50,056 bases of DNA from positions 1 through 50,056 of IMG/VR virus record IMGVR_UViG_3300028586_000005, one strand, 5' to 3'. The notes under the pieces were generated by a model. It ran no database searches. It was not told the DNA's origin and saw nothing but the letters and a program-made list of their open reading frames with translations. The stretch's first letter is position 1. Every line of letters begins with the position of its first letter. Source of the DNA: a virus. Its lineage: Duplodnaviria > Caudoviricetes. This document shows, in pieces, positions 16,916 through 40,227 of the stretch. Position numbers and translations under genes: made by a program.

Positions 16916-17350
16916 TCAGTTCACCGGCGCTGGAGCGAAGATGAGGGGGCCGCTAACCTTGAGGGTCAGTGAGGCCGTCATCTTGTCGTCGATCACCACG
17001 TCAGCCGGCGCGTAGCTGGTGACGAGCGCCGAGCCTGAGACGCGGTGCTGCGCCGTCGTGCCGGGCTTGTTGAGGTCCATCGCGAACGCGCGGAGGTCGC
17101 CCGCCGCCATGGCAGTGTTGATGAGCGTGTCGTCGACCGATCCTGGATTGTAGTGGATCAGGACGGTCGCCTCGCCCGCGTCGATCAGCGAGGAAATGAA
17201 CTCGCGATAGTCGCCGGTCGAGTCATGGGTGGTCGTGTCGATCGTGTCGCGCGTCGGCGACGGCGGCGTCAGCGAGACAACCTCCGCGATCTTCTGGAGC
17301 GCGGTTCCGTTGAAGAGATGGAACCGGGCGCCTTTGCCCTTCGTGGCCAT
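16916..17350 (-). CDS. Major tail tube protein
   Basis: DTIDTTTHDS...REFISSLIDAGE...LKVSG (Phage_tail_2-like). Confidence 0.88.
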   Translation of the reverse strand: MATKGKGARFHLFNGTALQKIAEVVSLTPPSPTRDTIDTTTHDSTGDYREFISSLIDAGEATVLIHYNPGSVDDTLINTAMAAGDLRAFAMDLNKPGTTAQHRVSGSALVTSYAPADVVIDDKMTASLTLKVSGPLIFAPAPVN

Positions 17351-17362
17351 AACATTATCTCC

Positions 17363-17761
17363 CTACTGAGGACGGTGAGGCACCAGGAAATCCATGGTGG
17401 TACGAAAGGTCTTGCGCCCTCCCTCCGAGGCCGAAGCGTCGCCGTCACTTTCATACACCAGGATCGCGCCCTCGAACACGACCCCGGCGACTACCTTGCG
17501 CCGTTCGAGTTCATTGAGAAGCAGTCGCGATACTTTCGCCGCATCTGCCTTCGTGCGCGCATATACATCGAACTGAACGCGAGGATACTGGAGGTCAGCC
17601 GCGCCATCATGCGTGTAATCACGGTTGCGCGCCGCGAGTTGAATGATGAGATAGGGGGCCTTGCTCCCCTCGGGTGCGATGCCCCAATAAACGTCGCGAC
17701 CGATCACGCGATACATCTCCGGCGCGTCGATCAGGCGCTTGATGAGCGCTTCCTCCATCAC
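17363..17761 (-). CDS. Tail terminator / completion protein (DUF3168-like)
   Basis: PYLII and RVQFDVYA motifs; synteny; GTGA overlap. Confidence 0.8.
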   Translation of the reverse strand: MMEEALIKRLIDAPEMYRVIGRDVYWGIAPEGSKAPYLIIQLAARNRDYTHDGAADLQYPRVQFDVYARTKADAAKVSRLLLNELERRKVVAGVVFEGAILVYESDGDASASEGGRKTFRTTMDFLVPHRPQ

Positions 17762-18201
17762 CGCCTCCTCTGCCGCCGGGCGCGTCGCGCCGCCGTGTCG
17801 ACAATCTCTTGCCCTAGGTCGCGCTCGATCGTCCGCAGCGCGCCTTCCTTGCCGCCCTCCCACGCGCTGCGAAAGAACGGCTGGGCGCGCTGATGGGCGT
17901 TGCCGAACTCATTCGCGATGCCCGCCGGATCAGCGGTGCCGAAGTGAACCTGAGTTTCCTTCGGGCGATCCTTGTTGAGCGAGCGCTGCCGCTTGTTGAG
18001 CTTGTTCTTGCCGCCTTCGATGAGGCTCTCTTCAAGGTCGCCGTAACGCTCCGGCGCGTCGCGCTTCACTTCGTCCGCGATAGGCTTGAGGGCCTTCGAC
18101 ATGACGCGCCGGAGGACGCCCGATTGCGTCGACTTGGGGAGGGCCGCTAGATTGTCTAGCAACTCCCTCCCGCCGTCGAGCGTGAACGGGCGCTTCGCCA
18201 C
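17758..18201 (-). CDS. HK97 gp10-like neck protein
   Basis: AP..YGDLEES and EFGNAHQRAQPFFRSAW. Confidence 0.85.
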   Translation of the reverse strand: MAKRPFTLDGGRELLDNLAALPKSTQSGVLRRVMSKALKPIADEVKRDAPERYGDLEESLIEGGKNKLNKRQRSLNKDRPKETQVHFGTADPAGIANEFGNAHQRAQPFFRSAWEGGKEGALRTIERDLGQEIVDTAARRARRQRRR

Positions 18202-18504
18202 TTAGGCGCCGACCGGCGCGGGCGCCGCCTTGCGGGCGCGCTTACGGGTGCGCGGCGCCTTCTCCTCGACGACATAGCCGGGATCAGCCGGCATCTCGCC
18301 GCTCAGAGGGGCGCCGCCGTCGATCGCCTCGGTGACCGCATCGCCTTCCTTGAGGGCATCGTGCCCGCCGCCATAGACCAGCGTGTTGTACGCCGAAATG
18401 GAGAGATGCCGCAGCACCGTCCCTGCTGAGTGATTCCCGACGCCGCCGGTGATGTCGTGGGTCAGCTTGACTGCGAGCTCACCCGGCTGTACCTTATCCG
18501 CCAT
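18202..18504 (-). CDS. Small neck-operon protein; paralogue of the N-terminal domain of the 30547-33060 protein
   Basis: GAGGGAG RBS; between head-closure and gp10-like genes; 22/45 ungapped identity to 30571-30705. Confidence 0.75.
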   Translation of the reverse strand: MADKVQPGELAVKLTHDITGGVGNHSAGTVLRHLSISAYNTLVYGGGHDALKEGDAVTEAIDGGAPLSGEMPADPGYVVEEKAPRTRKRARKAAPAPVGA

Positions 18505-18505
18505 A

Positions 18506-18877
18506 TCAAACTCCCTCATCGGTCGCGGCGGTCAACCGGATATTGTCGCCGCGCTCCGCCTGTTCCCGCGGCGACAGGATGTTGTAAGTTGTCACGACGT
18601 TATCCGGCGTCGTCACCACCGCTCGATCCTTCGCCAATAGATCGCGCGCGCGCTCTTCAGAGCGTATCTCGATCATGACGGGGAGGGTCGCGGACGTTTG
18701 GGCGTCTGTGAAGCGTTCGTACCCAGGCGCCGGATATACAGCACAGCGCGCCTTGAAGAGTTCCGACCATCCATTCTCGGTGGGTTCGTTGAATTCGTCA
18801 CGAGCTTCCGTCCTCCGCTGGAAAGTTACCAGACAGTCGAGCCGGCGACGTTGCTTGACGAAGGATGGGCGGCGCAT
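18506..18877 (-). CDS. Head closure / head-tail adaptor (SPP1 gp16-like)
   Basis: VTFQRR..RDEFNEP...W; synteny. Confidence 0.85.
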   Translation of the reverse strand: MRRPSFVKQRRRLDCLVTFQRRTEARDEFNEPTENGWSELFKARCAVYPAPGYERFTDAQTSATLPVMIEIRSEERARDLLAKDRAVVTTPDNVVTTYNILSPREQAERGDNIRLTAATDEGV

Positions 18878-19410
18878 CAGAGGCTCCTAACTCGCTTCAT
18901 TCCGAGCAGGCTGTGGACCGCTTTCCACTGGGCGTCAGCTTCCTTTCCATCCGGCTTGTCATAGAAAATACGCACGATCAGAGCCGTCGCCTGCTTCGCG
19001 ACCGCTGGCGCCTTCCCGGCCTCGAAGCCGGCGACGTAAACCACCTGTACCGCGCCGCTCTCGCGCTGCAGGAAGGGCCATACGGCGCCCGAGGTAGGAA
19101 GGAGTGCGGCGAAGTCTCCCGCAACAGTACGGGGCTGCAGGGCGACGCCCTTCACCGACATGGAGAGGAGGGAGACGAACGGGCCGAACGGCAGGTGGAA
19201 TGGGAGGGGGAGGCTGTCGGCAAAAAGCGTGACCGTCGCGCGCGACAGGAACAGCCCCAGATAGTCCTCCACGTAGTCCTGCGCGGACTTGATGTAGTCA
19301 CCGATCATGGCATCATCGTCCGGGAAGGTGACGTCAAGCTCGCGCTTCGCCTCCTCCAGCGTCAGCAGGTTCAGCGCCTCGCGTTCCGTTACGATGTGCG
19401 ACCAGTTCAT
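18877..19410 (-). CDS. Head-tail connector protein (gp6-like)
   Basis: LTLEEAK..L.V...DDDAMI..YI.SA..YVE.Y; YVAGF. Confidence 0.88.
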   Translation of the reverse strand: MNWSHIVTEREALNLLTLEEAKRELDVTFPDDDAMIGDYIKSAQDYVEDYLGLFLSRATVTLFADSLPLPFHLPFGPFVSLLSMSVKGVALQPRTVAGDFAALLPTSGAVWPFLQRESGAVQVVYVAGFEAGKAPAVAKQATALIVRIFYDKPDGKEADAQWKAVHSLLGMKRVRSL

Positions 19411-19900: not shown

Positions 19901-21232
19901 TTAGGCGATGCGCTTCACCGCGCGCATATATTCCGGGTTCTGGACGCCGCCGCCAACGCGCTTCGTGGTGTAGAACATCACGTAGGGCTTGTTGGTGTAG
20001 GGGTCGCGCAGCACTCGGATGCCGATGCGGTCGATCACCAGATAGGTCGAGCGCATGTTGCCGAACAACACGAACGTGGAGCCGACGCCATCGGCGTACA
20101 CCGGCATGCCGGGCAGGTCGATGATGCCATAGCCGTGGATCGTCCCCGGCTGGCCGGCGGTGATGCCGGGCTGCCAGAGATAGTTGTTGTCGGCGTCCTT
20201 GATCTTGCGGATCGCGGCCTGCGTCGAGCGCGCCATGTAGAACTGGGCGCCGTTGATGCGCTCTGCGGGCGTGTTATACACGACGTCGAGCAGCAGGTCG
20301 GTGAACGCGGTGTTGGTCGGCGCCGCGTTGGTCGTCTCCGCCTTGATCGCGCCCAGCGGGTGCTCCGTCGCGCGCGCCGCGCCCTCGACGAAGGTCAGCA
20401 GGCCCTTGGGCTTGTTGACGCCGTCGCCCGCGAGAAAGGCGATGCCCTCCTGCCGCGCGAACTCGTCACGGACCTCGCCGGCCAGCCAGTCCTCCAGATT
20501 GATCGCCGCATCGTCGAGCGCCGTCTGGGTGATCGCCGGGTTGGCGTAAATCTCGCCGATGCCGAAGGTCACTTCGGCGAACGTCGGCGTGGAGGTCTGC
20601 GGACGCGCCGCAGTCTCGCCGACCCAGCCCGAACCGGGCCGACCGACCGCCACCAGACGCTTGAAGCCCTGGCCGGTGATCGTGATGCTGTCGGCATAGG
20701 GCCGGATCGACGGCGCCGTCAGCAGCTGCTGGGTGATCGAGCGATCCCACTCGATCGGAGCGAGGAAGCCGCCATCAGCCTGCGAGCCCATCTGCATCGC
20801 CGCGTCGACCCGCGCGCGCAGCGCGGCCCGGACCTCGACGTTGTCGTCCTCGCCGCGGCGCATGAACGAATTGAAGGTGCGGACATAGGCCGGATCGCCG
20901 GGAATGTCGCCGATGACATTCTCGGGCGCCTGCTGCGTCTGCACCGCTTCCTGGACCGACTGGAGCGCCGTCTGCAGGTTGCCGATGTGCTCGTTCATCT
21001 TGTCGACCTTGGCGGTGACGAGACCATCTTCCTTCTTGGAGGCGTCGATCTCACCGCGCATGGACGCGAGGGTGCGGTTGAGCTCCTCGAACATCGCCTG
21101 CGGGGTCGGCGCGTCGGCGCGGATGCCCGACAGGCCCATGCCCATCGTGGCGCGCAGCGCGCGGGGGAGGACGGGAAGGGCGGCGGCGCTGGAAGCGGCG
21201 GACGCCATTGCGAGGATATTCGGGTGCTTCAA
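19901..21232 (-). CDS. Major capsid protein, HK97 family
   Basis: DGGFLAP, WVGET, FLAGDGVNKPKG, LRDPYTNKPYVMFYTTKRVGG. Confidence 0.96.
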   Translation of the reverse strand: MKHPNILAMASAASSAAALPVLPRALRATMGMGLSGIRADAPTPQAMFEELNRTLASMRGEIDASKKEDGLVTAKVDKMNEHIGNLQTALQSVQEAVQTQQAPENVIGDIPGDPAYVRTFNSFMRRGEDDNVEVRAALRARVDAAMQMGSQADGGFLAPIEWDRSITQQLLTAPSIRPYADSITITGQGFKRLVAVGRPGSGWVGETAARPQTSTPTFAEVTFGIGEIYANPAITQTALDDAAINLEDWLAGEVRDEFARQEGIAFLAGDGVNKPKGLLTFVEGAARATEHPLGAIKAETTNAAPTNTAFTDLLLDVVYNTPAERINGAQFYMARSTQAAIRKIKDADNNYLWQPGITAGQPGTIHGYGIIDLPGMPVYADGVGSTFVLFGNMRSTYLVIDRIGIRVLRDPYTNKPYVMFYTTKRVGGGVQNPEYMRAVKRIA

Positions 21233-21251: not shown

Positions 21252-22244
21252 TTAAGAACGAGCCGTGGCGAGCAATGCGCCCATCGCGGCAGTGAGATCG
21301 AAGTCAGCGTCGCGCTTGGCCTCGACCGTTTGTCCGTGATCCCCCGCGGCAGCGTCCGGCTTGCCCTTGAGTTTCCCTAGACGTTCACGGGCTTGCGTCC
21401 GCGTTAGTCCAGAAGCGAGCAATATTCGCTCCATGCCGCGGATTTCGTTGGCGTCGCGGTCCTTGACCTTCTCGCCTTCGTCGACCGTGACGTGATCGGA
21501 GGGGAGGAGTTCGTCGGCGAAACCGCGCTCGATCGCCTGCGCGCCGCTCATGTACGTCTCGGCGTCGAGCCACTTCGTGAGGTCGTTGACCTTCTGGCCG
21601 GTGCGCGCGGCGTAAACGTCCTTGAGCGCGTTGTCGAACGGCTCCAAGAAGTCGGCGAGTTCACGAAGGTCGTGCTTGTTGCCGTACCCCATGACCGAGC
21701 AGTTATGGATCATGATAAACGCCGCCGCGCCGATTTGGACCGTATCGCCGGCCATCGCGATGATCGAGGCGGCGGACGCGGCCATGCCGATCACCTTGAT
21801 GGTGACGTTGTACGGGTGCTCGCGCAGCGCGTTGTAAATCGCGAAGCCCTCGAACACGTCGCCGCCGGGCGAGTTGATCTGGACCTCGACCGCGCCGCCG
21901 ATGGCGCGCAGCTGACGGCTCACAGACTTGGCGGTGATGCCTTCGTCCCAGAAGTCCGCGCCGATCGCGCCGAAGATGGTGATGACGTTATCGCCGCGCT
22001 CGACCGCGCGCACGCCCGCGTGCTCGTTGGCCCACTTCGCTGCCACTTCCGGGTCGGCGAAGGCGCGCACGTTCTCCCGATGGGGGACCGGGAGCGCAGG
22101 CGGACGTTCATTCACGACGCGACCGATTAGGCCCTTGGGCCGGCTTACCGGCTGGCTGGGCGCCTCCGGCATCCGGCTCTTGCCCGTCGTCGCCTTGTCC
22201 GGCGGCGTCGGCTGCGACTTTTGCGGCTGGTTGGGGGAGGTCAT
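21252..22244 (-). CDS. ClpP-type prohead maturation protease
   Basis: INSPGGDVFEG, GMAASAAS, MIHN, ETYMS; start at the ATG after GAAGGAAGG. Confidence 0.92.
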   Translation of the reverse strand: MTSPNQPQKSQPTPPDKATTGKSRMPEAPSQPVSRPKGLIGRVVNERPPALPVPHRENVRAFADPEVAAKWANEHAGVRAVERGDNVITIFGAIGADFWDEGITAKSVSRQLRAIGGAVEVQINSPGGDVFEGFAIYNALREHPYNVTIKVIGMAASAASIIAMAGDTVQIGAAAFIMIHNCSVMGYGNKHDLRELADFLEPFDNALKDVYAARTGQKVNDLTKWLDAETYMSGAQAIERGFADELLPSDHVTVDEGEKVKDRDANEIRGMERILLASGLTRTQARERLGKLKGKPDAAAGDHGQTVEAKRDADFDLTAAMGALLATARS

Positions 22245-23523
22245 TGCCACCTTCCTTCGGGTTGAGCTCGAATTTGCCGCGCACCTCATTCTGAGTCATC
22301 CAACCCTTACCGCCACCGGCGCCGAGCGCCTTGCTGAAGAAGTTGGCCTGACTTTCGAGCGAACCACGAAGCAGGGCACCGTCGTTGAACTTGGCATAGT
22401 ATTCGTCTGCTTCCTCTTCAGAGAGAAGCGAACGGGCAATTGCCTCCTCGATGGACTGGAACCACGAGAGCAGGCAGTAAGTGATGAAGAACAGGCCGAG
22501 CACTTCGATGCCGGAGCCCCAGCTAGTATCGTCCATGAAGAGGAGCGGACGCGGGACATTGGTGAAGCGCCCGACTTCTTCGATCTGGAACTTGCGGTTT
22601 TCGACGTTCTGCGCGTCCTTGAGGGAGGAAGCGTTGTTGATCGACACCTGAAGCCCATCCTCGGCGACGATCCACTTGCCCGCGTTCTTGGGCGATGCCT
22701 GCCGCTCCTCGAATTGCGCCCGGAGCCGGTCGACCGCCGGCTGCGACAGGGGCTTGTCGGTCGAGAGGACGCCACCGACCAGCGCGCCGTTCTTCAGCAC
22801 CTTCGCCGCAGCCTCCTCGGACTGCGAGGCGAGGGCAATCGTCTCCAGCGCGACCTCGACCAGCTTCGTGCCGGTGATGCCGTCCGACGACACCGGAGAG
22901 CGGAACCAGAACATGTCCTTTGAAGGTATCTTGGCGCCCTTGTGGGTGAAAACCAAGTCGTCGCCTTCGATCTTGTAAGTAACGCTCTTGGGGTCGAGCG
23001 GGATCAGCGCGTCGATCCGGCGCCCACCCTTGACGGTCATGTCGATCACGTAGCGCTTGTGCGCGTAGCAAATGCCATCGAACAGAGCGCGCGTCACCAT
23101 GTAGTTTTTGAACTCATACGGCGTCATGAACTTGTTCGGGCGCTTCTTCAGGATGCGATAGACCGGGTGATCCTTCGCCTTCTTGGCGCCCTCCGCCTTT
23201 TCGTCGTCGTCAAGCTCCTCACCTTCCAGATCGTCAAGTTTGATCTTTTGATACAATTCGAGCGGCAGCATCCCGAGGGAGCCGGCGATCAGGTGGACGG
23301 CGCGGTGGACCGCGGAGTTGCGAAGCGCCAGTTTCTCATTGACGCTAATGCCGGTCGCGGACTGCGTGGAGTTGCCGCGCAAGTATTCGATCACGCCGGG
23401 ATCGTCGAGGCTCACGAAGTCCATGACCTGCGTGCCGCCAGCCGCGCTGAGGCGGTCGATCGCCGGCAGCGACATGGTAGTGTTGCCGAGGAGCGCATCC
23501 TTTACATTGCTGAGCCAGCTCAT
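22108..23523 (-). CDS. Portal protein, HK97 family
   Basis: RPNKFMT, SLKDAQ..ENRKFQIEEV, LLRG, MTQNEVR. Confidence 0.95.
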   Translation of the reverse strand: MSWLSNVKDALLGNTTMSLPAIDRLSAAGGTQVMDFVSLDDPGVIEYLRGNSTQSATGISVNEKLALRNSAVHRAVHLIAGSLGMLPLELYQKIKLDDLEGEELDDDEKAEGAKKAKDHPVYRILKKRPNKFMTPYEFKNYMVTRALFDGICYAHKRYVIDMTVKGGRRIDALIPLDPKSVTYKIEGDDLVFTHKGAKIPSKDMFWFRSPVSSDGITGTKLVEVALETIALASQSEEAAAKVLKNGALVGGVLSTDKPLSQPAVDRLRAQFEERQASPKNAGKWIVAEDGLQVSINNASSLKDAQNVENRKFQIEEVGRFTNVPRPLLFMDDTSWGSGIEVLGLFFITYCLLSWFQSIEEAIARSLLSEEEADEYYAKFNDGALLRGSLESQANFFSKALGAGGGKGWMTQNEVRGKFELNPKEGGNDLPQPAAKVAADAAGQGDDGQEPDAGGAQPAGKPAQGPNRSRRE

Positions 23524-25181
23524 AGGAAGATCATCCCTCGTTCCTCGTACACATTCGGCTCCTCCGGCTCCTCTGCAGCAGAAGCTAGACCAAGCATCTG
23601 GACTAGTGCCTGCATGCCGTCGATCCGGCCCGTCGACTTGGACTTGTCGAGCTTCCGATTGCCCGCCGTGTCCTTAATCACTACCGCGTTCGAGGCGCAC
23701 ATGCGCATGACTGCGTTGCCGCCGTGAATTACTTGCTCGTTCAGGAACAGGACCTCGGCGGCGTCCATCGCGGGAGCCATCGACACGTAACCCTGCCCCC
23801 ACTCGACGAAGGGGAGCGACACTGGCGGGTTCATGTCTTGGAACTTCTTCTCCAAGAGTTTGAACCGGTGCCGGTCATACGCGATCCCGATCAGGTTGAG
23901 TTCTTCAACCACGTTCGCAATGTCGCGCGCGACAAATTCATAGTCGACAGCTTTGCCAGGCGTGGTCGTAATCAGCCCTTCCTCAGCCCAGCGCTCATAT
24001 GGCTGCCGATCGCGCTTCGCATGTTCCTTGATCGTGGCTTCCGGCTTCCAGAACATCGCGTTACAATGCCAGTTCTTCTCGGCGTCCTGCGCGCCCCACA
24101 CGAACGCGCTCAAGTCGGTCGTCTCAGCGAGGTCGAGCCCTCCATACACGCGACCAGTGCGGATTACTTCCTGATCTACCTCACGGTTGCCCTTCGCCCA
24201 GATCGAAGCCGGCACGAACACAGCGATGCGGTTGACGCGCTGGTTGAGATACAGGTTACGGAAGCTGTTTTCGAAGGACGGCATGCGGTTCGCTCGCGCC
24301 GCTTTCCTCTCAAGCTCGACTGCCGAACGAAAAGTGCCAAGGGCCGGATTTGCCGCACGCCACGCGTTCTCATCGAGAACATCAATCTCTTCAGGCTTGA
24401 GGTCGCGATCCAGCGCCTCAAAGTCGGCGCTATACACATGGGCGATCGTGTGCGGGTCAGTATCTCCGGCCCGGATAGCGTCGTCGATGCGGATCGACAG
24501 CATGTCCGCGTCGGTCGGCGCCTGCGTCGAGATGATAATTTCCAGAGCATCGTCATACGCGCCCTGCGCCGTCTCGATCGCCTCAATGAAATCATCCTCC
24601 TCGCCGCGAACCTGCCCCATTTCATCGATGATCGCGAGGACAGGGGACAAACCGTGGTTCGAGCCGCCCTCCGCGGACAGTGCGCGGTACTCAGTGCCCA
24701 TGGTGACGCCGAGGAGTGTCTTGCTAGAGGGGACATCGCGAATGATCTTGCGAAGTTCCGGGTTGAGGTTCACCATCTTGAGAGCGAGCTTGAAGACTAG
24801 CGCCGCCTGATCCCGGCTCCGCGCGCCCGAGACGATCTGCGAGTTGAGGCGCGCTTCCGGCCCGACAAGGTGGGCGAGGGCGATAGCTGCGATGAGCGCA
24901 GTCTTGCCGTTCTTGCGCGCGATCGACAGAATGGCAGTATTCGTCTCATGCGGGTTGTCATACACCGCGAGGATAAAGAGCTTCTGGAAGTGGTCCAAGA
25001 CTATCGGCTTGCCAACATGCTTGCCCTCCGGCACGCGGCAGTAACGCTCGATGAACTTGATGACCTTCTCGCCGCGGGTGAGTTTCCGCATCAGCTTCTG
25101 CGTGGTATCATACAGAAGCTCTGACGCGAACATCCAATCAGGCGTCGGAATACAAGACGGGAGGCGGTGCTGTATTTCCAT
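23520..25181 (-). CDS. terL: Terminase large subunit (start may be ATG 25091)
   Basis: ARKNGKT Walker A, IIDE Walker B, GLDLA..TDLSA, RIDG. Confidence 0.96.
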   Translation of the reverse strand: MEIQHRLPSCIPTPDWMFASELLYDTTQKLMRKLTRGEKVIKFIERYCRVPEGKHVGKPIVLDHFQKLFILAVYDNPHETNTAILSIARKNGKTALIAAIALAHLVGPEARLNSQIVSGARSRDQAALVFKLALKMVNLNPELRKIIRDVPSSKTLLGVTMGTEYRALSAEGGSNHGLSPVLAIIDEMGQVRGEEDDFIEAIETAQGAYDDALEIIISTQAPTDADMLSIRIDDAIRAGDTDPHTIAHVYSADFEALDRDLKPEEIDVLDENAWRAANPALGTFRSAVELERKAARANRMPSFENSFRNLYLNQRVNRIAVFVPASIWAKGNREVDQEVIRTGRVYGGLDLAETTDLSAFVWGAQDAEKNWHCNAMFWKPEATIKEHAKRDRQPYERWAEEGLITTTPGKAVDYEFVARDIANVVEELNLIGIAYDRHRFKLLEKKFQDMNPPVSLPFVEWGQGYVSMAPAMDAAEVLFLNEQVIHGGNAVMRMCASNAVVIKDTAGNRKLDKSKSTGRIDGMQALVQMLGLASAAEEPEEPNVYEERGMIFL

Positions 25182-28843: not shown

Positions 28844-29062
28844 ATGGCCGCTAGGCCCCTAACTCCCGATCACGTCGCGTCGATCAAGCTCGCTCGGCAC
28901 TACCTCACCGAGATGAGCGCGACGCTCGACCGCATGGAGCGCGATGAGGACGCCCGCCCGGTCGCGCTCCTCTCGATGCGGATGAACTCCCTCAACCTGA
29001 CGGGCGCGATCGACGGCATCAATGCCGCGAACGTCAACGCCGGCTTCGCGGTGGTCGTATGA
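28844..29062 (+). CDS. Hypothetical protein
   Basis: AAGGAAACC RBS. Confidence 0.7.
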   Translation: MAARPLTPDHVASIKLARHYLTEMSATLDRMERDEDARPVALLSMRMNSLNLTGAIDGINAANVNAGFAVVV

Positions 29063-29352
29063 AGCGCCGCTGGCAGCGCCGCCAGCGCATCTGGCATCCG
29101 TCGATCGGCTTCGGCACGGTCACTCGCGTTCACAACCGCTTCAACGTCATCTTCGCGATCGATGACCGCACCGGCAAGGAGGTCGAGCTTAACTCCGTCT
29201 CGGCGATCCTCCTCAAAGGGACAGCGGAGTATCGCGTCAAGCTCGCCGAGCGGGAGGGCGGTTACGAACTCAAGTGGTTCGTCCTCCACCAGCTGTCGAT
29301 CGGTCGCGATCCGCGCGACATCAGGAAGATGCTGAAGGCCGCTTCGGCATGA
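29059..29352 (+). CDS. Hypothetical protein
   Basis: ATGA-coupled chain. Confidence 0.7.
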   Translation: MKRRWQRRQRIWHPSIGFGTVTRVHNRFNVIFAIDDRTGKEVELNSVSAILLKGTAEYRVKLAEREGGYELKWFVLHQLSIGRDPRDIRKMLKAASA

Positions 29353-29528
29353 AGCAGACCGCCGCCGAGTGGGCCGCGAACCGCGAAGCGCGGAAGCTCC
29401 CCCATTACGGCGGCAACCGCATCCCGGCGTCCTACCTCGCGCGCTTCGGTGGCCGCGTAGCGAGGCAGGACGATCACCCGGACGATCTACCAGAGGCCAT
29501 CGACAGCTTTCTGAGAGACCAGCTATGA
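29349..29528 (+). CDS. Hypothetical protein
   Basis: ATGA overlaps at both ends. Confidence 0.6.
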   Translation: MKQTAAEWAANREARKLPHYGGNRIPASYLARFGGRVARQDDHPDDLPEAIDSFLRDQL

Positions 29529-29869
29529 AAGACGAAGGCATGACGCTCAAGATCGACCTCGACCAGAAGGTCAAGGATGCGTTCGCCGGCCTCACAAAGG
29601 CGCTCGGATCATTCCGCCCGCACATGTCGCCGGAAGAAATCGAGACGGCGGGCCGGCTCCTCAGTCGCCGCAAGTCACTCAAGGATCGCATCGAGCAGCT
29701 GCGCGGCGCTAGCAATCGTATCCGGGCCGGCGAGGTTATGGGAACGCTCCACGGCGTCATCATTCCGTCGAGCGCCACGGAAGAAGTCGCCGCGGTCGTC
29801 GAGCGCCACATCCTGATCGACCTCAACTCGATCGAGCGCCAGCTGGCCGACCTGGGGGTGGCGCTGTGA
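29525..29869 (+). CDS. Hypothetical coiled-coil protein
   Basis: ATGA/GTGA overlaps. Confidence 0.7.
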   Translation: MKDEGMTLKIDLDQKVKDAFAGLTKALGSFRPHMSPEEIETAGRLLSRRKSLKDRIEQLRGASNRIRAGEVMGTLHGVIIPSSATEEVAAVVERHILIDLNSIERQLADLGVAL

Positions 29870-30474
29870 GTACCAAGGGCCTCATCGCGGACAAGCGCGT
29901 CGAGCGCGTCGACCTCAATGAAGCAGGCAAGGCGGCGTTCCTGACGCTCGCTGACCCGTGGCGCTACAACGGCGAGAAGGGACCGTTCAAGCTCGATAAC
30001 GTCGACCACGGCCACAAGATCGTGAAGGGCGCGACCGGCGGGACCTCCGCCCGAGCGCCGCGCGCGGCGACAGCGCCGGCTCCCAAGCCCGTAGCGCCGA
30101 AGGGGAACCCCACCGAGGCCATGAAGCGCGATCCGGGTAGCGAGACGCCCTCGACCGCGGCGCCTGTCCCTCCTGGCTTCGTAAGGGGCGAGGCCAAGAT
30201 ATACGTGTACCGCATCGTCCAGAAGTCGGAAGCCCTCAACCATGAGGTTGTCGGCTGGCTCAAGACGAACCGCCCTTGGCCCAAGGACTGGCTCGCCTCC
30301 CATTCGCAGGAGCAGCTGTGCCAAGCCTTCAAGGGCGAGCGCGAGGCGTATCACTTCTATGAGGACGGCTCATTCCTCTGGACCAAGAAGATGGAGGAGG
30401 ACGCGCGCAAGGCCGGCGACATGGGCTCGCCGTTCCGCAGCGAAAATCTCGAACACGGAGCCAACGGCGAGTAA
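29866..30474 (+). CDS. Hypothetical two-domain protein with Pro/Ala linker
   Basis: GTGA overlap; codon bias. Confidence 0.7.
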   Translation: MSTKGLIADKRVERVDLNEAGKAAFLTLADPWRYNGEKGPFKLDNVDHGHKIVKGATGGTSARAPRAATAPAPKPVAPKGNPTEAMKRDPGSETPSTAAPVPPGFVRGEAKIYVYRIVQKSEALNHEVVGWLKTNRPWPKDWLASHSQEQLCQAFKGEREAYHFYEDGSFLWTKKMEEDARKAGDMGSPFRSENLEHGANGE

Positions 30475-30546
30475 CCGCGGGCAACCGCTTCCCTCTGACG
30501 CGCTCGCGACGAAGGGAGGCGGTTGACTTTCTGTAGGGGACCGCTG

Positions 30547-33060
30547 ATGCCGACCGTTGCCGTCAACTCGCTCGCCGTCAAGCTCAAGGGCGAGACTGGC
30601 ACGCCGTTCGGGACCTTCCCGGCGAACACCGTACTCTTCAACCTGAGCCGCTCGCTCTACAACACGCTCTGGCAGACTGGGTACGCCGACCGCCTTCTGG
30701 AGGGCGTGAGCTTCGGCTTCCCGAGCTATGACGTCGACAAGGCAATCTACATCGACGCGAGCGGCAATACCGCGACCCCGCCGGGCGGTCAGCCGGGCGG
30801 CGGAGGCGGCAACCCGAACCCGACGCCGGGCGGTTCCGCGATCATCCCGGTGACGCAGTCGCAGTACAACTCGCTGCTGGCCTCCTCCTCCCTTCAGGCG
30901 CTGGCCTTCTACCTTGTCGCGGGCGCCAAGCTCCTATTCGCCACGACCGCCGCCGCCGCGCTGACGATCGCGGACGGGACCGGCGGCTCGACGCCGACCC
31001 CCACGCCGACGCCCGGCGCGGCCTTCTCGATGGCGCAGCTGCCCGCGGCCAACCGCATCTATCAGCGCAAAACCGTCACCGGCGGCACCAACGCGAAGGG
31101 GACCGGCGACATCGTCGTCCCCGCGACCGTCACCGCGTCCGGGACCGTGACGGCGCGCTGCCGCGACGTGACGAGCAATTCGATCGTCCAGCCGGCCTGG
31201 AACGCCGGCACCGCGACCGCGGGCCAGACCTCGATCACCGTGACCGGCGTCGCCGCGCGCTCGGGCTGGTTCTACCTCGATCTGTCGCAGGACGGCGGCA
31301 CGACGTGGCAGCCGGGCACCGTTCCGATCGGGATGGGCCGGCTGGTCGCGATGAGCGGGCAGTCGCAGACGGTACGCCAGTTCGCGAAGATGCCGACCTA
31401 CAGCGGCACGAACGCCTCGCTCAACGTCAGCATCTCGCCGCTCACCGCGGTGTATGCGCGCTACGCCGACAGCGGCAAGACGCTCACGACGCCGGCTTGG
31501 GCGGTCCCGGCGGACGGTAGCAACTATGACTCGACCTTCGTGTCCGAGTTCCTGCGCCGTCAGGTCGATCTGTTCGGCGTCAACTGCGGCGCGATCGGGC
31601 ACGCGGTCGGGTCGACCAAGATCGCCGACTGGTTGCCGGGCACGCAGAACCACACGGACCTCTCCGGCGTCTTGAACGCCGCGGGCGGCTTCGAGGCGTT
31701 CTACATGCATATCGGCGGGACTGACGCAGGGGTGCCGACCGCCGCCGCCGACTTCGCGACCGGCTTCACCACGTTCTTCAGTTCGCTGACTGCGCTCAAC
31801 GGCGCCCGCGGATCGAGCTTCGCGCGCTACGTCACGGCGATGGCGACGCGGCTGGCGACCGGCACCGAGGTCAACGTCCGCAACCTCCGCTCCGCGCTCA
31901 AGGCGTGGGCGGCAGGGACCGGCGCGGCGATGTATCTGGAGCCGCGCGACGTCACGCTGGCGGATGACGTCCACCAGGACCCGGCGGGCAATATCCGGCT
32001 GGCGCAGCACCTGTACCGCGCCACGCGGTCGGAGGCGAGCTTGGCCGCGGACGCCGGCCCGACGCTGGCGAGCGCGGTTCGCGCGACCGGCTCGGCGGAC
32101 ATTCTGCTGACGTTCAACCTGCCGACTGGCGCGACCTCCCTCTCGATGGTCGGCGCGGGTCAGCTGCGGTTCGTCGTGAGCGTCGCCAACGACACGACGC
32201 CACTGGCGCTCGACGCGACCACCCCGATCGTCGTGGGGACGAACACGATCACGCTGAAGCTGGCGGCGGTCCCCGCCAACACCGTCGCGCTCGACATCTG
32301 GGTCCTGAAGCACCCGGACCCCTCAGGAACGACCGCGGCCTCGGCGATGATCTACGACAACCACACGAACGGCGACGGGATCGCGGTGGGTCGCCACCTG
32401 ACGCCCTCCTACCTCCCGACCGTCGCCGCGGCGCCGGGCGGCGGCTCGACGCCCACCCCGACGCCGACGCCCTCGGCGCCGTTCGTGGACGACTTCACCG
32501 ATACGGACGGCGTGAGCCTCGCAGCCCACGTCTCCGCGACCGGCCATACCTGGACGGTTCCGGCGGGCACGCTGACGATCAGCGGCGCTAATGGTACGGT
32601 GATCGGCGCGGCCTCCTCGAATGGCCTGTCCTCCTACATCGCGCCGAGCGCGGACGCCTACGTGGAGGGCGTCATCGTCGAGCCGGTCGGGACGCCCAAG
32701 GGGAACTCGCTCTGGCTCCTGCTCGGCGTCAACGGCGGCAACAACTGGTACCAGTTCGGCCTTCAGCGTCCGGGTACCACGGCGCAGCACGGTTGGTACA
32801 TCGGCAAGACGGTCGGCGGGACGTTCACGGCGCTCACAGGGGCCTTCGCCGCGCAACTCTTCACGCCGGGCGAAACGTGGAAGCTCCGCGGCGAGCGACA
32901 GGGCAATGTCCTCCGGCTGTTCGCCAATGACGTCAAGGTCATTGAGATCACGGACACGACGTTCAGCGTCGCGGGCGGCGTCGGCGTCCGCAACTCGGGC
33001 GTCGCATCGCTGGTCGATGGCGGGACCCAGTTCACGAGCATGAAGGCCGGCGTCCTCTGA
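30547..33060 (+). CDS. Multidomain protein: neck-protein-like N-terminal domain, PT linkers, SGNH (sialate O-acetylesterase-like) hydrolase, C-terminal beta-sandwich/lectin-like domain
   Basis: MSGQSQ (block I), AVGST (II), IGGTD (III), DDVH (V); two GGSTPTPTPTP linkers; no signal peptide. Confidence 0.75.
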   Translation: MPTVAVNSLAVKLKGETGTPFGTFPANTVLFNLSRSLYNTLWQTGYADRLLEGVSFGFPSYDVDKAIYIDASGNTATPPGGQPGGGGGNPNPTPGGSAIIPVTQSQYNSLLASSSLQALAFYLVAGAKLLFATTAAAALTIADGTGGSTPTPTPTPGAAFSMAQLPAANRIYQRKTVTGGTNAKGTGDIVVPATVTASGTVTARCRDVTSNSIVQPAWNAGTATAGQTSITVTGVAARSGWFYLDLSQDGGTTWQPGTVPIGMGRLVAMSGQSQTVRQFAKMPTYSGTNASLNVSISPLTAVYARYADSGKTLTTPAWAVPADGSNYDSTFVSEFLRRQVDLFGVNCGAIGHAVGSTKIADWLPGTQNHTDLSGVLNAAGGFEAFYMHIGGTDAGVPTAAADFATGFTTFFSSLTALNGARGSSFARYVTAMATRLATGTEVNVRNLRSALKAWAAGTGAAMYLEPRDVTLADDVHQDPAGNIRLAQHLYRATRSEASLAADAGPTLASAVRATGSADILLTFNLPTGATSLSMVGAGQLRFVVSVANDTTPLALDATTPIVVGTNTITLKLAAVPANTVALDIWVLKHPDPSGTTAASAMIYDNHTNGDGIAVGRHLTPSYLPTVAAAPGGGSTPTPTPTPSAPFVDDFTDTDGVSLAAHVSATGHTWTVPAGTLTISGANGTVIGAASSNGLSSYIAPSADAYVEGVIVEPVGTPKGNSLWLLLGVNGGNNWYQFGLQRPGTTAQHGWYIGKTVGGTFTALTGAFAAQLFTPGETWKLRGERQGNVLRLFANDVKVIEITDTTFSVAGGVGVRNSGVASLVDGGTQFTSMKAGVL

Positions 33061-33092
33061 TAGGTACTGACCCGGACCTAGGTTAATGGGAG

Positions 33093-33117
33093 GGGAGGGC
33101 CGCGAGCCCTCCCTTTT
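33093..33117 (+). terminator. Rho-independent terminator
   Basis: GGGAGGGC-CGCGA-GCCCTCCC-TTTT. Confidence 0.7.
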
Positions 33118-33131
33118 CATGAGGTCTGTAT

Positions 33132-34004
33132 ATGAAGCCGATCATCGCAGTCAACGCCGGCAACGAGCCGAGCGAGTACCAAGCCTTCAACGCCTTCGTC
33201 AACGGACAACTGGGCGGCGGCTCAGTGTTCTTCGATCAGCGATCTGAGGCGCAGTTCCGCGGAGCCGCGGTCAGCTATCAGGCGCCGCAGGGCGGGCTGG
33301 TCCAGCGCGCGGTCCCCGGATCGTTCATCAAATATTCGCTGTCGTTCCCCGGCGCCGCGATCGACGTTTGTCAAGCGGTCGCCGAGGGGAAGTTTGACGA
33401 CCTCTACCGCGACATTCTGCAGGCGATCGCACGCGCCAATGCCGGCAACGTCCAGATCATCATTCGCCTGCCGTGGGAGTTCAACCTCAAGCGCGAGTAC
33501 CAGAATCAGTCGGTCGAGGGCGTCCAGAGCTGGTTCAAGTCGGCGCAGAACCGCATCGCGCTCATCATCCGCCGCATCCTGTCGCGGGCGCTGATCGAGT
33601 GGTGCCCGAACGTCGGCATGCAGCAGTTTGATCCGGCGCCCTACACGCCGTGGACCGAGCTTTACGACATCGTCGCGCAAGACCTCTACATTCCCGATCA
33701 GTCGTGGGTCTGGCCGGGCCTCGCCAGCTGGCTCATCAACGACGGCGGTGGTCGCGGCTGCGCCTGGGCGATCGACCTCGCGCTCCGCAAGGGCAAGAAG
33801 TTCGCGCTGGCCGAGTGGGCGGTTGAGAGCGAGCGCCACGCCGCCGAGATGCAGGTCATCTGCGACTTCCTCAAGTCGCTCGATAGCTCGACCCTCCACC
33901 ACCACGCCTACTGGTCGCGGGGCGATGGTCCGATCACGGGCAAGCTGCACGACGGCTCGCGCCCGACGCTGGCCGCCATCTACAAGGGAGCTTTCGTCCA
34001 ATGA
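33132..34004 (+). CDS. Glycoside hydrolase, GH26-like (clan GH-A)
   Basis: IRLPWEFN (acid/base), WCPN, DIVAQDLY, ALAEWAV (nucleophile). Confidence 0.75.
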   Translation: MKPIIAVNAGNEPSEYQAFNAFVNGQLGGGSVFFDQRSEAQFRGAAVSYQAPQGGLVQRAVPGSFIKYSLSFPGAAIDVCQAVAEGKFDDLYRDILQAIARANAGNVQIIIRLPWEFNLKREYQNQSVEGVQSWFKSAQNRIALIIRRILSRALIEWCPNVGMQQFDPAPYTPWTELYDIVAQDLYIPDQSWVWPGLASWLINDGGGRGCAWAIDLALRKGKKFALAEWAVESERHAAEMQVICDFLKSLDSSTLHHHAYWSRGDGPITGKLHDGSRPTLAAIYKGAFVQ

Positions 34005-35272
34005 TGAGATACCTTCTCGCCGCCGCCGTCGCCTTATTGGCGGCGGCTCCCGCATCGGGGCAGGCCGCTTGCGACCTCCCCGCCAACTCGAAAGTCGCCA
34101 CGTCGACCGACAAGGCCGCGCTGCAGAAGGGGCTCGACTGCCTCAAAGCGCGCATCAAGGGCCGTGAGGACAGCATCGTCGGGTTGACCGCCGCGAACAA
34201 GATCGACGCGACCCAGCGCGACGCGCGCGCCGCCCGGATCGCGAAGCTCAACGCGCAGCCGGCGACGCCAGCCCCCTCGCCGACGCCGACGCCGACGCCC
34301 AAGCCTCCCGCGCCGGTCACGCCGCCGCTCGGGCAGGGCAAGGCGGCCATCGCCTCGAACTTCGACACGTCGGCGTTCATCTCCACAGGGCTCGCAATCC
34401 CCGGCACCGCGGCGCCGGACGTCGTGGGGGCGTTCCGGCTGATCTGCCAGCCGCTGCCCGGCTCCAACCGGCTCGGCTTCGTCGACCCGATGGTCTGGCC
34501 GGGCGTCGTCGGCAAGAGTGAGCTTCACGAGTTCGCCGGCAACACCGCGGTCGACGAGAACAGCACCTATGAGACGCTCCGCGTGAAGGGCGACAGTAGC
34601 TGCATGAATCTCCTCAATCGTTCGAGCTACTGGCATCAGGCGCTGCTGACCGGCGACGACAAGTATGTCATCAGCTTCGATTACATCAGCTTGTACTACA
34701 AGCGCTTCCCGGTCTGGTCGCCACTTTGCGCTCGCGCGATCTATGGCTGCGTCAACTTGCCGAACGGACTACAGGCCAAGGCGGACGTGACTTCGTTCCG
34801 TTGCTTCACCAATCAGATCCATCGGGATACGATCGATGAAGCGATCAAGGACTGCGGCGGTGAGGGGCAGGTCCTTGCGTCGATCACGTTCGGCGATTGC
34901 TGGAACGGGCAGCTGGATAGCCCGGACCATTACTCGCACTTGATCCCGTTCTCGGGCAAGAAGGAAGCGCCTTGGGAACTGGAGTGCAAGGCCGGCTACA
35001 ACTGGATCATCCCACAGCTGACCCAGACGATCGCGTGGACCATCAAGAAGTCGGACGGCGCCGTGCACTTCTCGACGGGACCGGGCCACAAGCTCCACGG
35101 CAACTATCAGCTGGCCTGGGATCAGCCGACCCTCGACACGGCGATGGATAACTGCATCAACAAGCTGCTGAACTGCAGCGACGGCGACCTCGGCAACGGG
35201 TCGATCCTGAAGCGGTGGGCCGGCTTCGGATACCTGACTGAGCCGCGGTTGGTCCTCGCTCCCCTCCGCTAA
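34001..35272 (+). CDS. Secreted DUF1996-domain protein with coiled coil and PT linker
   Basis: Signal peptide; GAFRLIC...DPMVWPG..G.S.LHEFAGN, NRSSYW, FGDCWNG.LDSPDH.SH. Confidence 0.8.
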   Translation: MMRYLLAAAVALLAAAPASGQAACDLPANSKVATSTDKAALQKGLDCLKARIKGREDSIVGLTAANKIDATQRDARAARIAKLNAQPATPAPSPTPTPTPKPPAPVTPPLGQGKAAIASNFDTSAFISTGLAIPGTAAPDVVGAFRLICQPLPGSNRLGFVDPMVWPGVVGKSELHEFAGNTAVDENSTYETLRVKGDSSCMNLLNRSSYWHQALLTGDDKYVISFDYISLYYKRFPVWSPLCARAIYGCVNLPNGLQAKADVTSFRCFTNQIHRDTIDEAIKDCGGEGQVLASITFGDCWNGQLDSPDHYSHLIPFSGKKEAPWELECKAGYNWIIPQLTQTIAWTIKKSDGAVHFSTGPGHKLHGNYQLAWDQPTLDTAMDNCINKLLNCSDGDLGNGSILKRWAGFGYLTEPRLVLAPLR

Positions 35273-37358: not shown

Positions 37359-38234
37359 ATGGTAACGAAGGCATCGCCGGCGCCGACCGGCAAGAACGAA
37401 CTCGCGACGACCACTGCGCCCGGCGCGCTCGCCCTTCCGGGTATCATGGGCGACTTCTTGATGGCTGAGGCCGAGAAGCACCAGCCCAAGATCACGATGG
37501 CCGATACCATCATGCCGCGCCTCTCGGTGCTGCAGGCGCTGTCGCCGACCGTTAACAAGCGCAAGCCGGAATACGTGCCCGGTGCTGAGCCCGGCATGAT
37601 CCTCAACGTCGCGACACTCGAACTCTTCACCGAGCGCCGGCTGCTCCCGGTCCACTATATCCGTCACCACGTCGAGTGGCGCCAGAACCGCGGCGGCTTC
37701 GTCGCCGATCACGGTGAGGATGATTCGATCATGGCGCGCGTCGTGTCGCGCGACGACAAGAACTTCGAAATCCTCGACAACGGCAACATCATCCAGCCGA
37801 CGCCGACGTGGTACTGCCTCGACCTCGACAACGACGGCGCGATGGTCGTGCTGTCGATGCCGCGCACTCACTCGCGGACCTCGCGCTCGTGGATGAGCCA
37901 GGTGACGAACGAGAAGATCACCCATCCGGGGACCGGGCAGAAGTTCAACCCTCCCATGTTCTTCCGCTCTTGGGTGCTCGGGACCTTCCTCACCAGCGAC
38001 GACAAGAACGAGTGGTTCATCTGGAAGGTGCTCGAAGCCGGCCCCACGATCGTCGACACGGTCGACGGCAAGCCGGACGGCGAGCCCGTCCTGCCGCTCG
38101 GCACGATGGAGAAGGCGATCCGCTTCCGCGACATGCTCGTGTCGGGCGCCGTCAAGGCGGACGCCTCGCACTTCGAGGAGGCCGGCGGCGGCAACGGCGG
38201 CGGCTCGCGGTCGGACGACAGCGCGCCGATGTAA
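37359..38234 (+). CDS. Putative ssDNA-binding / replication accessory protein
   Basis: MPRLSVLQALSP...YVPGAEPG motif recalled from phage replication modules; Gly-rich acidic tail (SDDSAPM). Confidence 0.55.
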   Translation: MVTKASPAPTGKNELATTTAPGALALPGIMGDFLMAEAEKHQPKITMADTIMPRLSVLQALSPTVNKRKPEYVPGAEPGMILNVATLELFTERRLLPVHYIRHHVEWRQNRGGFVADHGEDDSIMARVVSRDDKNFEILDNGNIIQPTPTWYCLDLDNDGAMVVLSMPRTHSRTSRSWMSQVTNEKITHPGTGQKFNPPMFFRSWVLGTFLTSDDKNEWFIWKVLEAGPTIVDTVDGKPDGEPVLPLGTMEKAIRFRDMLVSGAVKADASHFEEAGGGNGGGSRSDDSAPM

Positions 38235-39606: not shown

Positions 39607-40227
39607 ATGTCAGACCCGATGGACGCGCTGTTCGCCAACCAGATGGTCGCGGGCGACAACCAGCTGAAGAACCTCGCCGGCCTGATCGAGCAGGAGGACG
39701 AAGCCAACAACGAACTCGCCGCGCTCGAAACAATGACCGCGGACGTCAAGGCCCGGCGCTCGAACCTCCGCAACAAGCTCATTCCCGAGGCGATGCTGGA
39801 GGCCAAGACCCGCGACTTCACGACGGACAGCGGCCTCAAGGCCAAGCTCGCCTTCGCCACGGACGGCTCGCTCGGCTCCCCTAAGACTGAGGAGGAGCGG
39901 CGCGAGAAGGAAGCGAAGCTGGACCTCATCATCGCGCACGGCGGCGGCGAGATCGTCAAGCAGATCGTGACGGTGGAGTTCCCCAAGGAGATGATCGAGG
40001 AGGCGGAGAAGTTCCGCACTTGGCTCATCGACGAACTCCAAGAGCGCCGCGGCTGGGCTGTCAACATCTCGCGCGAGCGGTCGGTCAACCACCAGACGCT
40101 GATGTCGTTCATTCGGACCCGGATGGAGGAGGAGCGGCCCGAGGACCGCATCCCCATGACGATCTTGGAGAAGCTCGGCATCTGGTACGGCGAAATCGCC
40201 AAGATCACGCGACCGAAGAAAAAGTGA
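39607..40227 (+). CDS. Conserved phage replication-module protein (coiled coil, IPEAM...VNHQTL)
   Basis: GGAGG RBS; motif pattern recalled from siphophage replication regions. Confidence 0.7.
   Translation: MSDPMDALFANQMVAGDNQLKNLAGLIEQEDEANNELAALETMTADVKARRSNLRNKLIPEAMLEAKTRDFTTDSGLKAKLAFATDGSLGSPKTEEERREKEAKLDLIIAHGGGEIVKQIVTVEFPKEMIEEAEKFRTWLIDELQERRGWAVNISRERSVNHQTLMSFIRTRMEEERPEDRIPMTILEKLGIWYGEIAKITRPKKK

Follow-up and report, generated by a model that had tools for sequence, protein, structure and literature searches.

Why would a phage encode the same small domain twice, once as a stand-alone protein among its head-to-tail joining genes and once as the first part of a large enzyme? 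The question is raised by a phage genome of 50,056 bp (hereafter the window; Table 1), whose plus strand carries a gene for a modular carbohydrate esterase and whose minus strand carries, 12 kb away, a gene for a 100-residue protein of the neck operon. An earlier note on this DNA had proposed that the N-terminus of the esterase is a duplicate of the small protein and anchors the enzyme on the virion. We found that the two proteins share a homologous domain and that the enzyme has the proposed build; display of the enzyme on the particle is our tentative reading of these facts. Three things are new: the anchor family, the occurrence of a tiny stand-alone paralogue among the head-to-tail joining genes, and the location of the gene for the enzyme. 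The finding rests on one phage lineage and one further fusion protein.

A domain shared by the esterase and a small neck-operon protein

BLASTP of the 845-residue open reading frame (ORF) of the esterase against the 105-residue ORF of the small protein returned a single ungapped match with 22 of 46 residues identical (E value 1e-6), where the earlier note had counted 22 of 45. The matched segments lie at 30571-30705 (+) and 18477-18343 (-), as the note had placed them, and pair residues 8-53 of an 837-residue protein with residues 9-54 of a 100-residue protein. These lengths follow from the likely start codons, ATG 30547 and ATG 18504, which are also those of the database gene calls (P0005 for the esterase, P0003 for the small protein); the length of 845 residues given previously is that of the ORF, and the real protein is likely to have 837. 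The domain stands at the start of both proteins.

The match was the sole clear paralogy in an all-against-all BLASTP of the 57 phage proteins (E 1.5e-5). A hidden Markov model (HMM) built from 22 foreign small homologues, with both copies of this phage and a second fusion protein (P0034, described below) left out, recognized the esterase N-terminus (residues 5-55) with an E value of 4.7e-10 and the small protein with 5.7e-30, while the next best of the 57 proteins scored 1.2. The proposed duplication thus holds up in a profile that contains neither copy. Within the small family, the anchor is most similar to the protein encoded in the same genome: over a 47-column core the two are 47% identical, and its identities to the 23 small proteins span 26-47% with a median of 36%. 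At the DNA level the two segments are 50% identical, and 38% identical at third codon positions; the duplication is therefore old.

Soil contigs from a different study span the head completion (Phage_HCP), small and gp10-like genes (17808-18986, 13 differences in 1179 bases) and also run from the upstream gene through the anchor into the esterase body (29349-31890). In this near-identical soil strain, neither gene is disrupted or displaced. Chance similarity or an assembly chimera, which the shortness of the match (46 residues) and the GC-rich, metagenome-derived genome might have favored, is effectively refuted by the independent profile, by the existence of foreign family members and by the bridging soil contigs, which exclude a chimera, and we give this explanation a negligible probability.

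As the earlier note had it, the small gene is flanked by genes whose products match Pfam Phage_HCP and HK97-gp10_like. The stop codon of the stopper gene lies 1 base ahead of the ATG of the small gene, and the GTG of the gp10-like gene abuts its stop codon with 0 bases between, which implies that the small gene is co-expressed with the neck proteins. In the AlphaFold2 model of the small protein (mean predicted local distance difference test score, pLDDT, 81.7; ~90 over residues 11-50), the core consists of short strands and one helix, and the tail is poorly ordered. After the domain comes a disordered acidic stretch and then a basic tail ending in APAPVGA.

Modules of the esterase and members of the anchor family

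The order of parts read by the earlier note (anchor, Gly/Pro linker, SGNH esterase, lectin-like domain) agrees with the fold model and with Foldseek. The AlphaFold model of the full-length esterase (27 sequences) is of high confidence from residue 160 onward, mostly with pLDDT >85 over residues 160-630, and falls to pLDDT <50 over residues 1-156, the anchor included. Foldseek searches of the Protein Data Bank (PDB) with residues 160-630 retrieved mammalian sialate O-acetylesterase (SIAE; 8f9p, E 1.1e-17), the Xanthomonas carbohydrate acetylesterase XAC1771 (7kmm, E 1.9e-17) and a CE20 enzyme (9ega, E 4e-10), all with a Foldseek probability of 1.00. The modeled esterase body thereby has the alpha/beta fold of SGNH enzymes, together with the beta-sandwich that SIAE-like enzymes carry at the N-terminus. 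Residues G271, Q272, S273, D473 and H476 reach 90% conservation or more in the 27 sequences and do not vary in the 11 closest; they belong to GQS and DxxH motifs, which we take to be family blocks I and V. The protein itself falls below the threshold of the Pfam model SASA (PF03629), scoring 17.3 bits where 24.8 are required (E 0.0038; match at residues 352-500 in the 845-residue ORF), although a precomputed match exists for 20 of 25 esterase homologues and five of the eight homologues in a set of ten rescanned proteins passed it at 34-36 bits. A sequence search of the PDB with the esterase profile gave 0 matches at E up to 0.01.

The last ~190 residues have the beta-sandwich jelly-roll fold of CBM66 carbohydrate-binding modules (4b1m, E 7.4e-9, template-modelling (TM) score by target 0.73; 4b1m, 4azz and 4b1l together, E 7e-9 to 1.4e-8) and of further concanavalin-like lectins, and they also match baseplate and central-fibre chains of mycobacteriophage Douge (E 3e-8 to 5e-7). 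Taken together, the models describe a putative polysaccharide O-acetylesterase of the SIAE/XAC1771 type with a CBM66-like end. No signal peptide is visible by eye, as had been noted before. Pfam has no match for residues 1-160. Within them, residues 97-143 may be a fibre-type trimerisation module, a lead that comes from Atlas (PTL_trimer and Mtd_N, all under the bar set by that service); neither Pfam nor PHROG matches this stretch.

The 25 esterase homologues (40-54% identity) have the enzyme core in common, and none of the 25 has this N-terminus. Their own N-termini are by eye of several different kinds, including helical ones followed by immunoglobulin-like (Ig-like) repeats. In P0025, a ~240-residue N-terminus matches phrog_10356, 'virion structural protein' (E 1e-12); in P0014 and P0029, internal fn3 regions match tail-protein PHROGs. 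Because homologous esterases carry many unrelated N-termini, a logic of anchor, linker and payload is plausible.

The anchor itself was found fused once more. P0034, a protein of 268 residues that is possibly partial, has the anchor, the spacer (with the first 15 residues shared with P0005) and the second small domain, followed by a (TP)n linker and Ig-like repeats that resemble those in other esterase homologues. It is ~68% identical to P0005 over 150 residues by eye, and 51% identical over 214 aligned positions. Since P0034 keeps the anchor and second domain and diverges after the (TP)n linker, the N-terminal 150 residues look like a portable cassette to which the payload is attached through a flexible linker. 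The profile search that the earlier note had suggested for N-terminal fusions with different payloads thus yielded one, P0034, whereas the 22 other members are stand-alone proteins. When residues 1-165 were used in a word-index search of proteins 460-1465 residues long, only the query itself came up, and the P0034 locus was not found in viral contigs. Its sole metagenome match (L006) is a low-GC tail protein that shares a short Gly/Thr-rich stretch, and we set it aside as irrelevant.

Two further homologues, P0017 and P0022 (from NCBI and JGI sources), have ~150 N-terminal residues ahead of the esterase core. A tail-tube domain at this position was not established: only P0022 has a Pfam tail-tube match, of lambda type and below the cut-off (E 0.0031). 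BLASTP of both against the tail-tube protein of this phage aligned no N-terminal region, and the top-scoring segments (E 0.05-0.09) fall in the esterase body; there was no PHROG or NCBIfam match, and P0022 had no PDB sequence match. If the P0022 match is real, some relatives would display the same enzyme along the tail tube. At the loci of the esterase homologues, no other protein of this phage has a match. One of these loci, in Sphingomonas sp. PsM26 (L003, 8520-18886), encodes a 711-residue homologue in a mosaic region with a prohead-protease (S78) fragment, an integrase, a portal, BRO/ANT genes and defence-like genes (AbiEii-type AAA_21, a KAP NTPase, a DpnII-type restriction enzyme); the context is phage-associated and uninformative on virion location.

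A HMMER scan of 1.84 billion cluster representatives with the family profile gave 33 matches at E up to 1e-3. Genuine members number 25, namely the two proteins of this phage, 22 stand-alone proteins of 70-113 residues and P0034. The remaining matches (P0050, 53, 54, 55, 57, 58, 60 and 61) are long proteins with 5-22 short matched stretches each and were set aside as repeat noise; P0055, P0058, P0060 and P0061 were inspected and are unrelated repeat proteins. The small proteins have a ~50-residue core at or near the N-terminus, then a variable acidic or Ala/Pro-rich tail, which by eye ends in an AP(x)G motif and basic residues in ~13 of the 23. The two fused proteins form a subgroup of their own, with 72% mutual identity over the core; their core identity to the small proteins is 26-47% for P0005 and 21-43% for P0034. 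Ten family members that we looked up belong to singleton or two-member clusters from Logan, ENA, JGI and NCBI assemblies, with uninformative names.

The shared domain is a rare and unannotated phage family. A tblastn search of 50,697 phage records gave nothing for P0003 or P0005. Pattern scans from the family alignment gave no confirmed relative in viral (27 stretches), genome (18) or metagenome (13) contigs. The domain was found in none of three host genomes that carry esterase homologues and in none of 401 genomes from the family of Sphingomonas sp. PsM26 (G001). For all of these negative searches, the tblastn search included, this phage itself was the only positive control. Sequence searches of the PDB gave one match for the domain family (E 4.4) and two low-complexity matches for residues 1-160 (E 0.075 and 0.16). 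We also compared the domain with DUF7210 (PF23843), whose Pfam model matches none of the 25 members; the fold comparison gave a Foldseek E value of 0.14 against BFVD (TM 0.60 over 44 columns), and Atlas a feature score of 0.85 and structure TM of 0.36-0.51, all below the bar of the service, where scores for the domain stayed <0.9. A literature search on DUF7210 found nothing.

Proposed display on the particle and its alternatives

The homology, the enzyme and lectin folds, the places of the two genes, the scarcity of family members and the interchangeable N-termini of esterase homologues are shown; from these we considered where the enzyme might act. The duplicated N-terminus suggests that the enzyme rides on the particle. 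The reading that we favor, at somewhat short of an even chance, is that the esterase is displayed through the shared domain at the head-neck region. Its first ~60 residues would dock on the same head-neck partner, either the capsid lattice or the connector, as the 100-residue paralogue, which would be co-translated with the head-completion and tail-completion proteins. The second small domain and the two flexible linkers (Gly/Pro and (Thr-Pro)n) would hold the esterase and lectin off the particle, and the enzyme would bind and de-O-acetylate host capsule, exopolysaccharide (EPS) or lipopolysaccharide (LPS) during adsorption. Phage fibres and decorations are commonly built with long disordered linkers and a terminal carbohydrate-binding module (CBM), so that this feature was counted for display, as were the Douge matches of the CBM, the embedding of the small gene in the joining operon and the cassette kept in P0034. 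A more specific version is a two-gene natural display system, in which the 100-residue protein is an accessory collar or capsid decoration and its enzyme-fused paralogue takes some of the same sites. We consider this version unlikely; it would place a polysaccharide deacetylase on the head or neck instead of the tail, and would make the ~60-residue domain a new portable virion-docking module.

A number of results weigh against display. The esterase gene lies outside the structural module, in the replication arm (DnaE, DUF5906, SNF2, ThyX), and is bounded by a hairpin on either side. The downstream genes (33132-35272, +) encode a 290-residue protein, for which Pfam, PHROG and NCBIfam have no match, and a 423-residue DUF1996 protein (E 1e-22) with a Sec-signal-like N-terminus followed by a (PT)n linker. 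These neighbors look non-structural, and the esterase and the two downstream genes may form an accessory polysaccharide-acting cluster. In the closest neck and tail relative (L054) the stopper abuts the gp10-like gene with nothing between them; the domain was found in none of 80 loci, within 7 kb, of phages with a 42-48% identical capsid protein (best E 0.64), and in none of 50 whole related phage records. Being missing from the related phages examined, the small gene is an accessory insert and not a conserved neck component. The term of the earlier note, a neck-operon protein, holds in that the gene sits inside the neck operon, but it is not a core neck gene. Accessory status would suit an optional decoration or collar no less than an assembly helper. 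The bare plug that the earlier note saw in the small protein is at most a candidate role, as is any structural one.

The anchor family gives further reason for caution. With only two of 25 genuine members fused, this phage's protein included, a general display platform is not evident. None of the 25 members matches any relevant Pfam model at E up to 10, PHROG has no match for P0003 or P0005, and NCBIfam has none for P0003, P0005 or P0034. The model of the small domain has no convincing relative in Foldseek searches of the PDB (best E 2.0) and BFVD (best E 0.058) or in the VIA structure search (best Z 4.6). The VIA matches at Z 3.6-4.6 were ribosomal L9-like and GINS B-domain folds, YqbF and the C-terminal domain of lambda gpFI, and a Z below 8 may mean only a common arrangement. 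That the domain is undescribed rests on the missing Pfam, PHROG and NCBIfam models and on literature searches for a family that has no name to search by. Finally, we infer the presence of either protein in the virion, the docking place and the substrate. Complex predictions of P0003 with the head completion and gp10-like proteins scored 0.00 in both runs, which were made without controls, and count neither for nor against.

The first alternative to display is that the esterase is a soluble accessory enzyme, produced from the non-structural arm with neighbors that look carbohydrate-active and released at lysis, where stripping of acetyl groups would destroy receptors or loosen the EPS matrix. 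Its N-terminal domain would then have another role, such as self-association or binding to an assembly intermediate, and the small protein would be an assembly helper, for example a chaperone like lambda gpFI with a folded domain and a disordered basic tail. The position of the gene, its hairpins and its downstream neighbors, among them the DUF1996 protein with its signal-like N-terminus and PT linker, fit this alternative, as does a small gene that is dispensable in relatives. The small protein, too, is a folded domain with a disordered tail that ends in basic residues, and the VIA search listed the C-terminal domain of gpFI (2lsm; Z 3.6, root-mean-square deviation 3.0 over 45 residues) and prophage YqbF (Z 3.8), although both lie in the noise range and neither match is significant. 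A soluble enzyme would have no need, however, of a conserved two-domain N-terminal cassette with long linkers, and P0034 keeps this cassette while its downstream part changes. Excerpts of PMC4856287 describe gpFI as a chaperone that sits on the prohead lattice and works by binding DNA; if the shared domain is gpFI-like and binds the capsid lattice, this would itself put the esterase on heads. We regard the soluble enzyme as possible but rather improbable.

Alternatively, the esterase might be a tail or baseplate side fibre, docked at the tail tip, as are most enzymatic receptor-binding proteins, though encoded away from the tail genes, and the small paralogue might be unrelated to the docking site or serve as an attachment or assembly factor. 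There is precedent for such gene placement in the gene transfer agent of Rhodobacter capsulatus (RcGTA), whose tail fibres are encoded away from the tail genes. The tail type of this phage, with a large central fibre protein (phrog_5616), and the sub-threshold leads of residues 97-143 to tail-fibre trimerisation modules are compatible with a side fibre, and depolymerases and esterases sit on tails as a general rule. Against this, the sole paralogue of the anchor is encoded with the head-to-tail joining genes and not among the baseplate genes, and the anchor showed no similarity to any tail protein of this phage. A side fibre is thus quite unlikely in our estimate.

How would display at the head-neck region compare with known systems? 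The nearest described arrangement is the neck passage structure (NPS) of lactococcal 936 and P335 siphophages. Excerpts of PMC6669499 describe it as a non-essential fibre of the head-tail junction with a conserved N-terminal anchor and variable C-terminal CBMs, some of which resemble the CBMs of carbohydrate esterases, and report that a single virion has the anchor fold in two proteins, NPS and the baseplate protein BppU. The systems are alike in being optional, in joining an anchor to variable carbohydrate-related ends and in using the anchor twice. They differ in that the NPS anchor is a ~130-residue BppU-type beta-sandwich, whereas the anchor here has ~60 residues and no detectable relative; BppU is absent among the fold matches of the small-domain model, and the full-length model has pLDDT <50 over the anchor. 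No NPS-like coiled coil was seen here, the payload is a complete enzyme rather than carbohydrate-binding modules, and the gene is found opposite the late operon, in the replication arm, whereas the NPS gene belongs to the late structural module. The second copy of the anchor is a tiny stand-alone protein here and another fibre in NPS phages. Lastly, NPS has been seen at the collar, whereas a neck location is a proposal here.

G7C gp63.1 is an esterase or deacetylase tailspike or fibre. Virion-borne SGNH deacetylases are likewise well documented in the source excerpts for Acinetobacter phage Aristophanes, Pectobacterium phage Possum and epsilon15. These esterase tailspikes, a common kind of phage protein, resemble the protein described here in placing an SGNH-type polysaccharide deacetylase on a phage protein with an N-terminal attachment part, but they are tail proteins from the tail module, whereas this enzyme is encoded elsewhere, belongs to the SIAE/XAC1771 (SASA) type and ends in a CBM66-like domain. 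The build of anchor, linker and enzyme is also the accepted one for phage receptor-binding proteins such as those of Klebsiella phages, for which excerpts of PMC6872550 and PMC8262889 describe an exchangeable N-terminal anchor, a C-terminal enzyme and horizontal swapping of modules. Compared with those proteins, the anchor family differs, a stand-alone paralogue of the anchor sits in the neck operon, and no branching partner or docking peptide was identified.

RcGTA also has head fibres, and their genes lie outside its main structural cluster. In excerpts of PMC7296036, its head spikes (base Rcc01079, fibre Rcc01080) are described as flexible capsule-binding head fibres attached by the extreme N-terminus, a 9-residue Leu-Gly repeat, to a jellyroll base pentamer. 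RcGTA is, as this phage probably is, an alphaproteobacterial HK97-type particle, and is a precedent for capsule-binding head appendages; its fibre has no enzyme domain, and the anchor here has no sequence match to any solved chain. The earlier note knew of no description of such an arrangement. The anchor family is indeed unnamed, but NPS and RcGTA are partial precedents.

SPP1 gp17.1/gp17.1* and T7 10A/10B are pairs of a short and a payload-carrying long form, near-identical and made by frameshifting in one gene. They share with the present pair the use of one assembly domain in a short and a long form, whereas here the two forms are encoded by two old paralogous genes with 47% identity, 12 kb apart on opposite strands. 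If the two-gene display system is real, it would be the duplicated-gene counterpart of such frameshift-made long tail-tube and capsid forms. More generally, if the shared domain is a docking module, it would give a function to an unannotated family of small phage proteins and offer a compact (~60 residues) natural tag for cargo on HK97-type particles. It would also make this siphophage of alphaproteobacteria in soil a case of enzyme display at a site other than the tail tip, with a bearing on the passage of phages through acetylated exopolysaccharide layers. Should the domain turn out to have no docking role, the locus would remain a clear instance of module shuffling in a widespread, uncharacterised family of SIAE-like phage and prophage esterases.

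The phage genome and the surroundings of the esterase gene

The phage is an uncultured siphophage of leaf litter and soil: the record comes from a leaf-litter metagenome, and the near-identical strain from the soil metagenomes of a different study. The host is probably Sphingomonas-like, as judged from esterase homologues in Sphingomonas genomes and from GC content (63.7%). The minus strand carries a classical siphophage late operon and the plus strand the replication genes (DnaE, a DUF5906 protein that is presumably primase/helicase-like, an SNF2 helicase and ThyX). The ~45 of 57 ORFs that were compared with Pfam or PHROGs included no integrase, which points to a lytic lifestyle.

Table 1. 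Coordinates of the genome record, the esterase and its modules, the small paralogue and the late genes
Feature	Position	Strand	Basis or remark
Genome record, IMG/VR IMGVR_UViG_3300028586_000005	50,056 bp		Direct terminal repeats; rated 100% complete
Modular carbohydrate esterase gene, 837 residues (P0005)	30547-33060	+	ORF list; ATG per alignment and database gene call
N-terminal shared domain ('anchor'), residues 1-62	30547-30732	+	BLASTP, independent HMM, profile search
Spacer and Gly/Pro-rich linker, residues 63-96	30733-30834	+	Read from sequence; pLDDT <50
Second small domain, residues 97-143	30835-30975	+	Common to P0034 only
Gly-rich, then (Thr-Pro)n linker, residues 144-158	30976-31020	+	P0005 and P0034 diverge beyond
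Beta-sandwich, SASA/SGNH acetylesterase body and further beta domain, residues 159-632	31021-32442	+	
Proposed catalytic Ser273	31363-31365	+	GQS block
Proposed catalytic Asp473	31963-31965	+	DxxH block
Proposed catalytic His476	31972-31974	+	DxxH block
Concanavalin/CBM66-like lectin domain, residues 646-837	32482-33057	+	After short (TP)n linker
GC-rich hairpin, 13-bp stem	30482-30525	+	-36.8 kcal/mol, z -3.13; between upstream gene 29866-30474 and esterase start
Terminator-like hairpin, 15-bp GC stem ending UUUUCAU	33086-33120	+	-35.0 kcal/mol, z -2.51; 26 bases past stop
Stand-alone paralogue gene, 100 residues (P0003)	18202-18504	-	ORF list; database gene call
Structured domain of the 100-residue protein, residues 1-62	18319-18504	-	
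Large terminase, likely	23520-25181	-	Named from position only; common to 61 of 80 capsid-related loci
Portal	22108-23523	-	
ClpP-type protease	21252-22289	-	
HK97-fold capsid protein	19901-21232	-	
132-residue protein	Late operon, between capsid and adaptor	-	No family match
gp6-like adaptor	18877-19410	-	
Head completion (stopper) protein	18506-18877	-	Pfam Phage_HCP, E 9.4e-12
HK97 gp10-like protein	17758-18201	-	Pfam HK97-gp10_like, E 2.3e-4; GTG start
gp17-like tail completion protein	17363-17863 (longest ORF)	-	Pfam match begins at residue 38
Tail tube protein	16916-17350	-	
Tape measure, likely	13742-16228	-	Named from position and size only
DUF6950 protein	Late operon	-	
Tail fiber protein, 1133 residues	8701-12102	-	phrog_5616 'tail fiber protein', E 3e-74
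GH108 endolysin	5818-6360	-	

The two hairpins that the earlier note had seen beside the esterase gene both fold (z -3.1 and -2.5), although a simple consensus scan for promoters and terminators missed them, reporting no promoter and no plus-strand hairpin. None of the sequencing runs listed for the region is registered as RNA. The DUF1996 protein encoded downstream of the esterase would, if secreted, be unusual for a phage. Just upstream of the esterase region, the soil strain (runs X2 and X3) shows a small cassette exchange: it has 615 other bases in place of 498 within 28850-29349, between flanks that remain 98-99% identical.

In the late operon, the longest ORF of the gp17-like protein overlaps the gp10-like gene by ~100 bases; as its Pfam match begins only at residue 38, the true start is probably further downstream. 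Two plus-strand genes (46827-49637 and 41-1894) encode a DnaE-type Pol III alpha subunit (PHP, NTPase and finger domains) and the DUF5906 protein. A 130-residue protein at the tail-chaperone position (16522-16914, -) resembles a Pam3 gp34-like protein (37359-38234, +); the match is weak (30% over 56 residues, E 4e-4 among the phage's own proteins), and a Pam3 gp33-like protein (DUF7307) is encoded near the latter, at 39607-40227.

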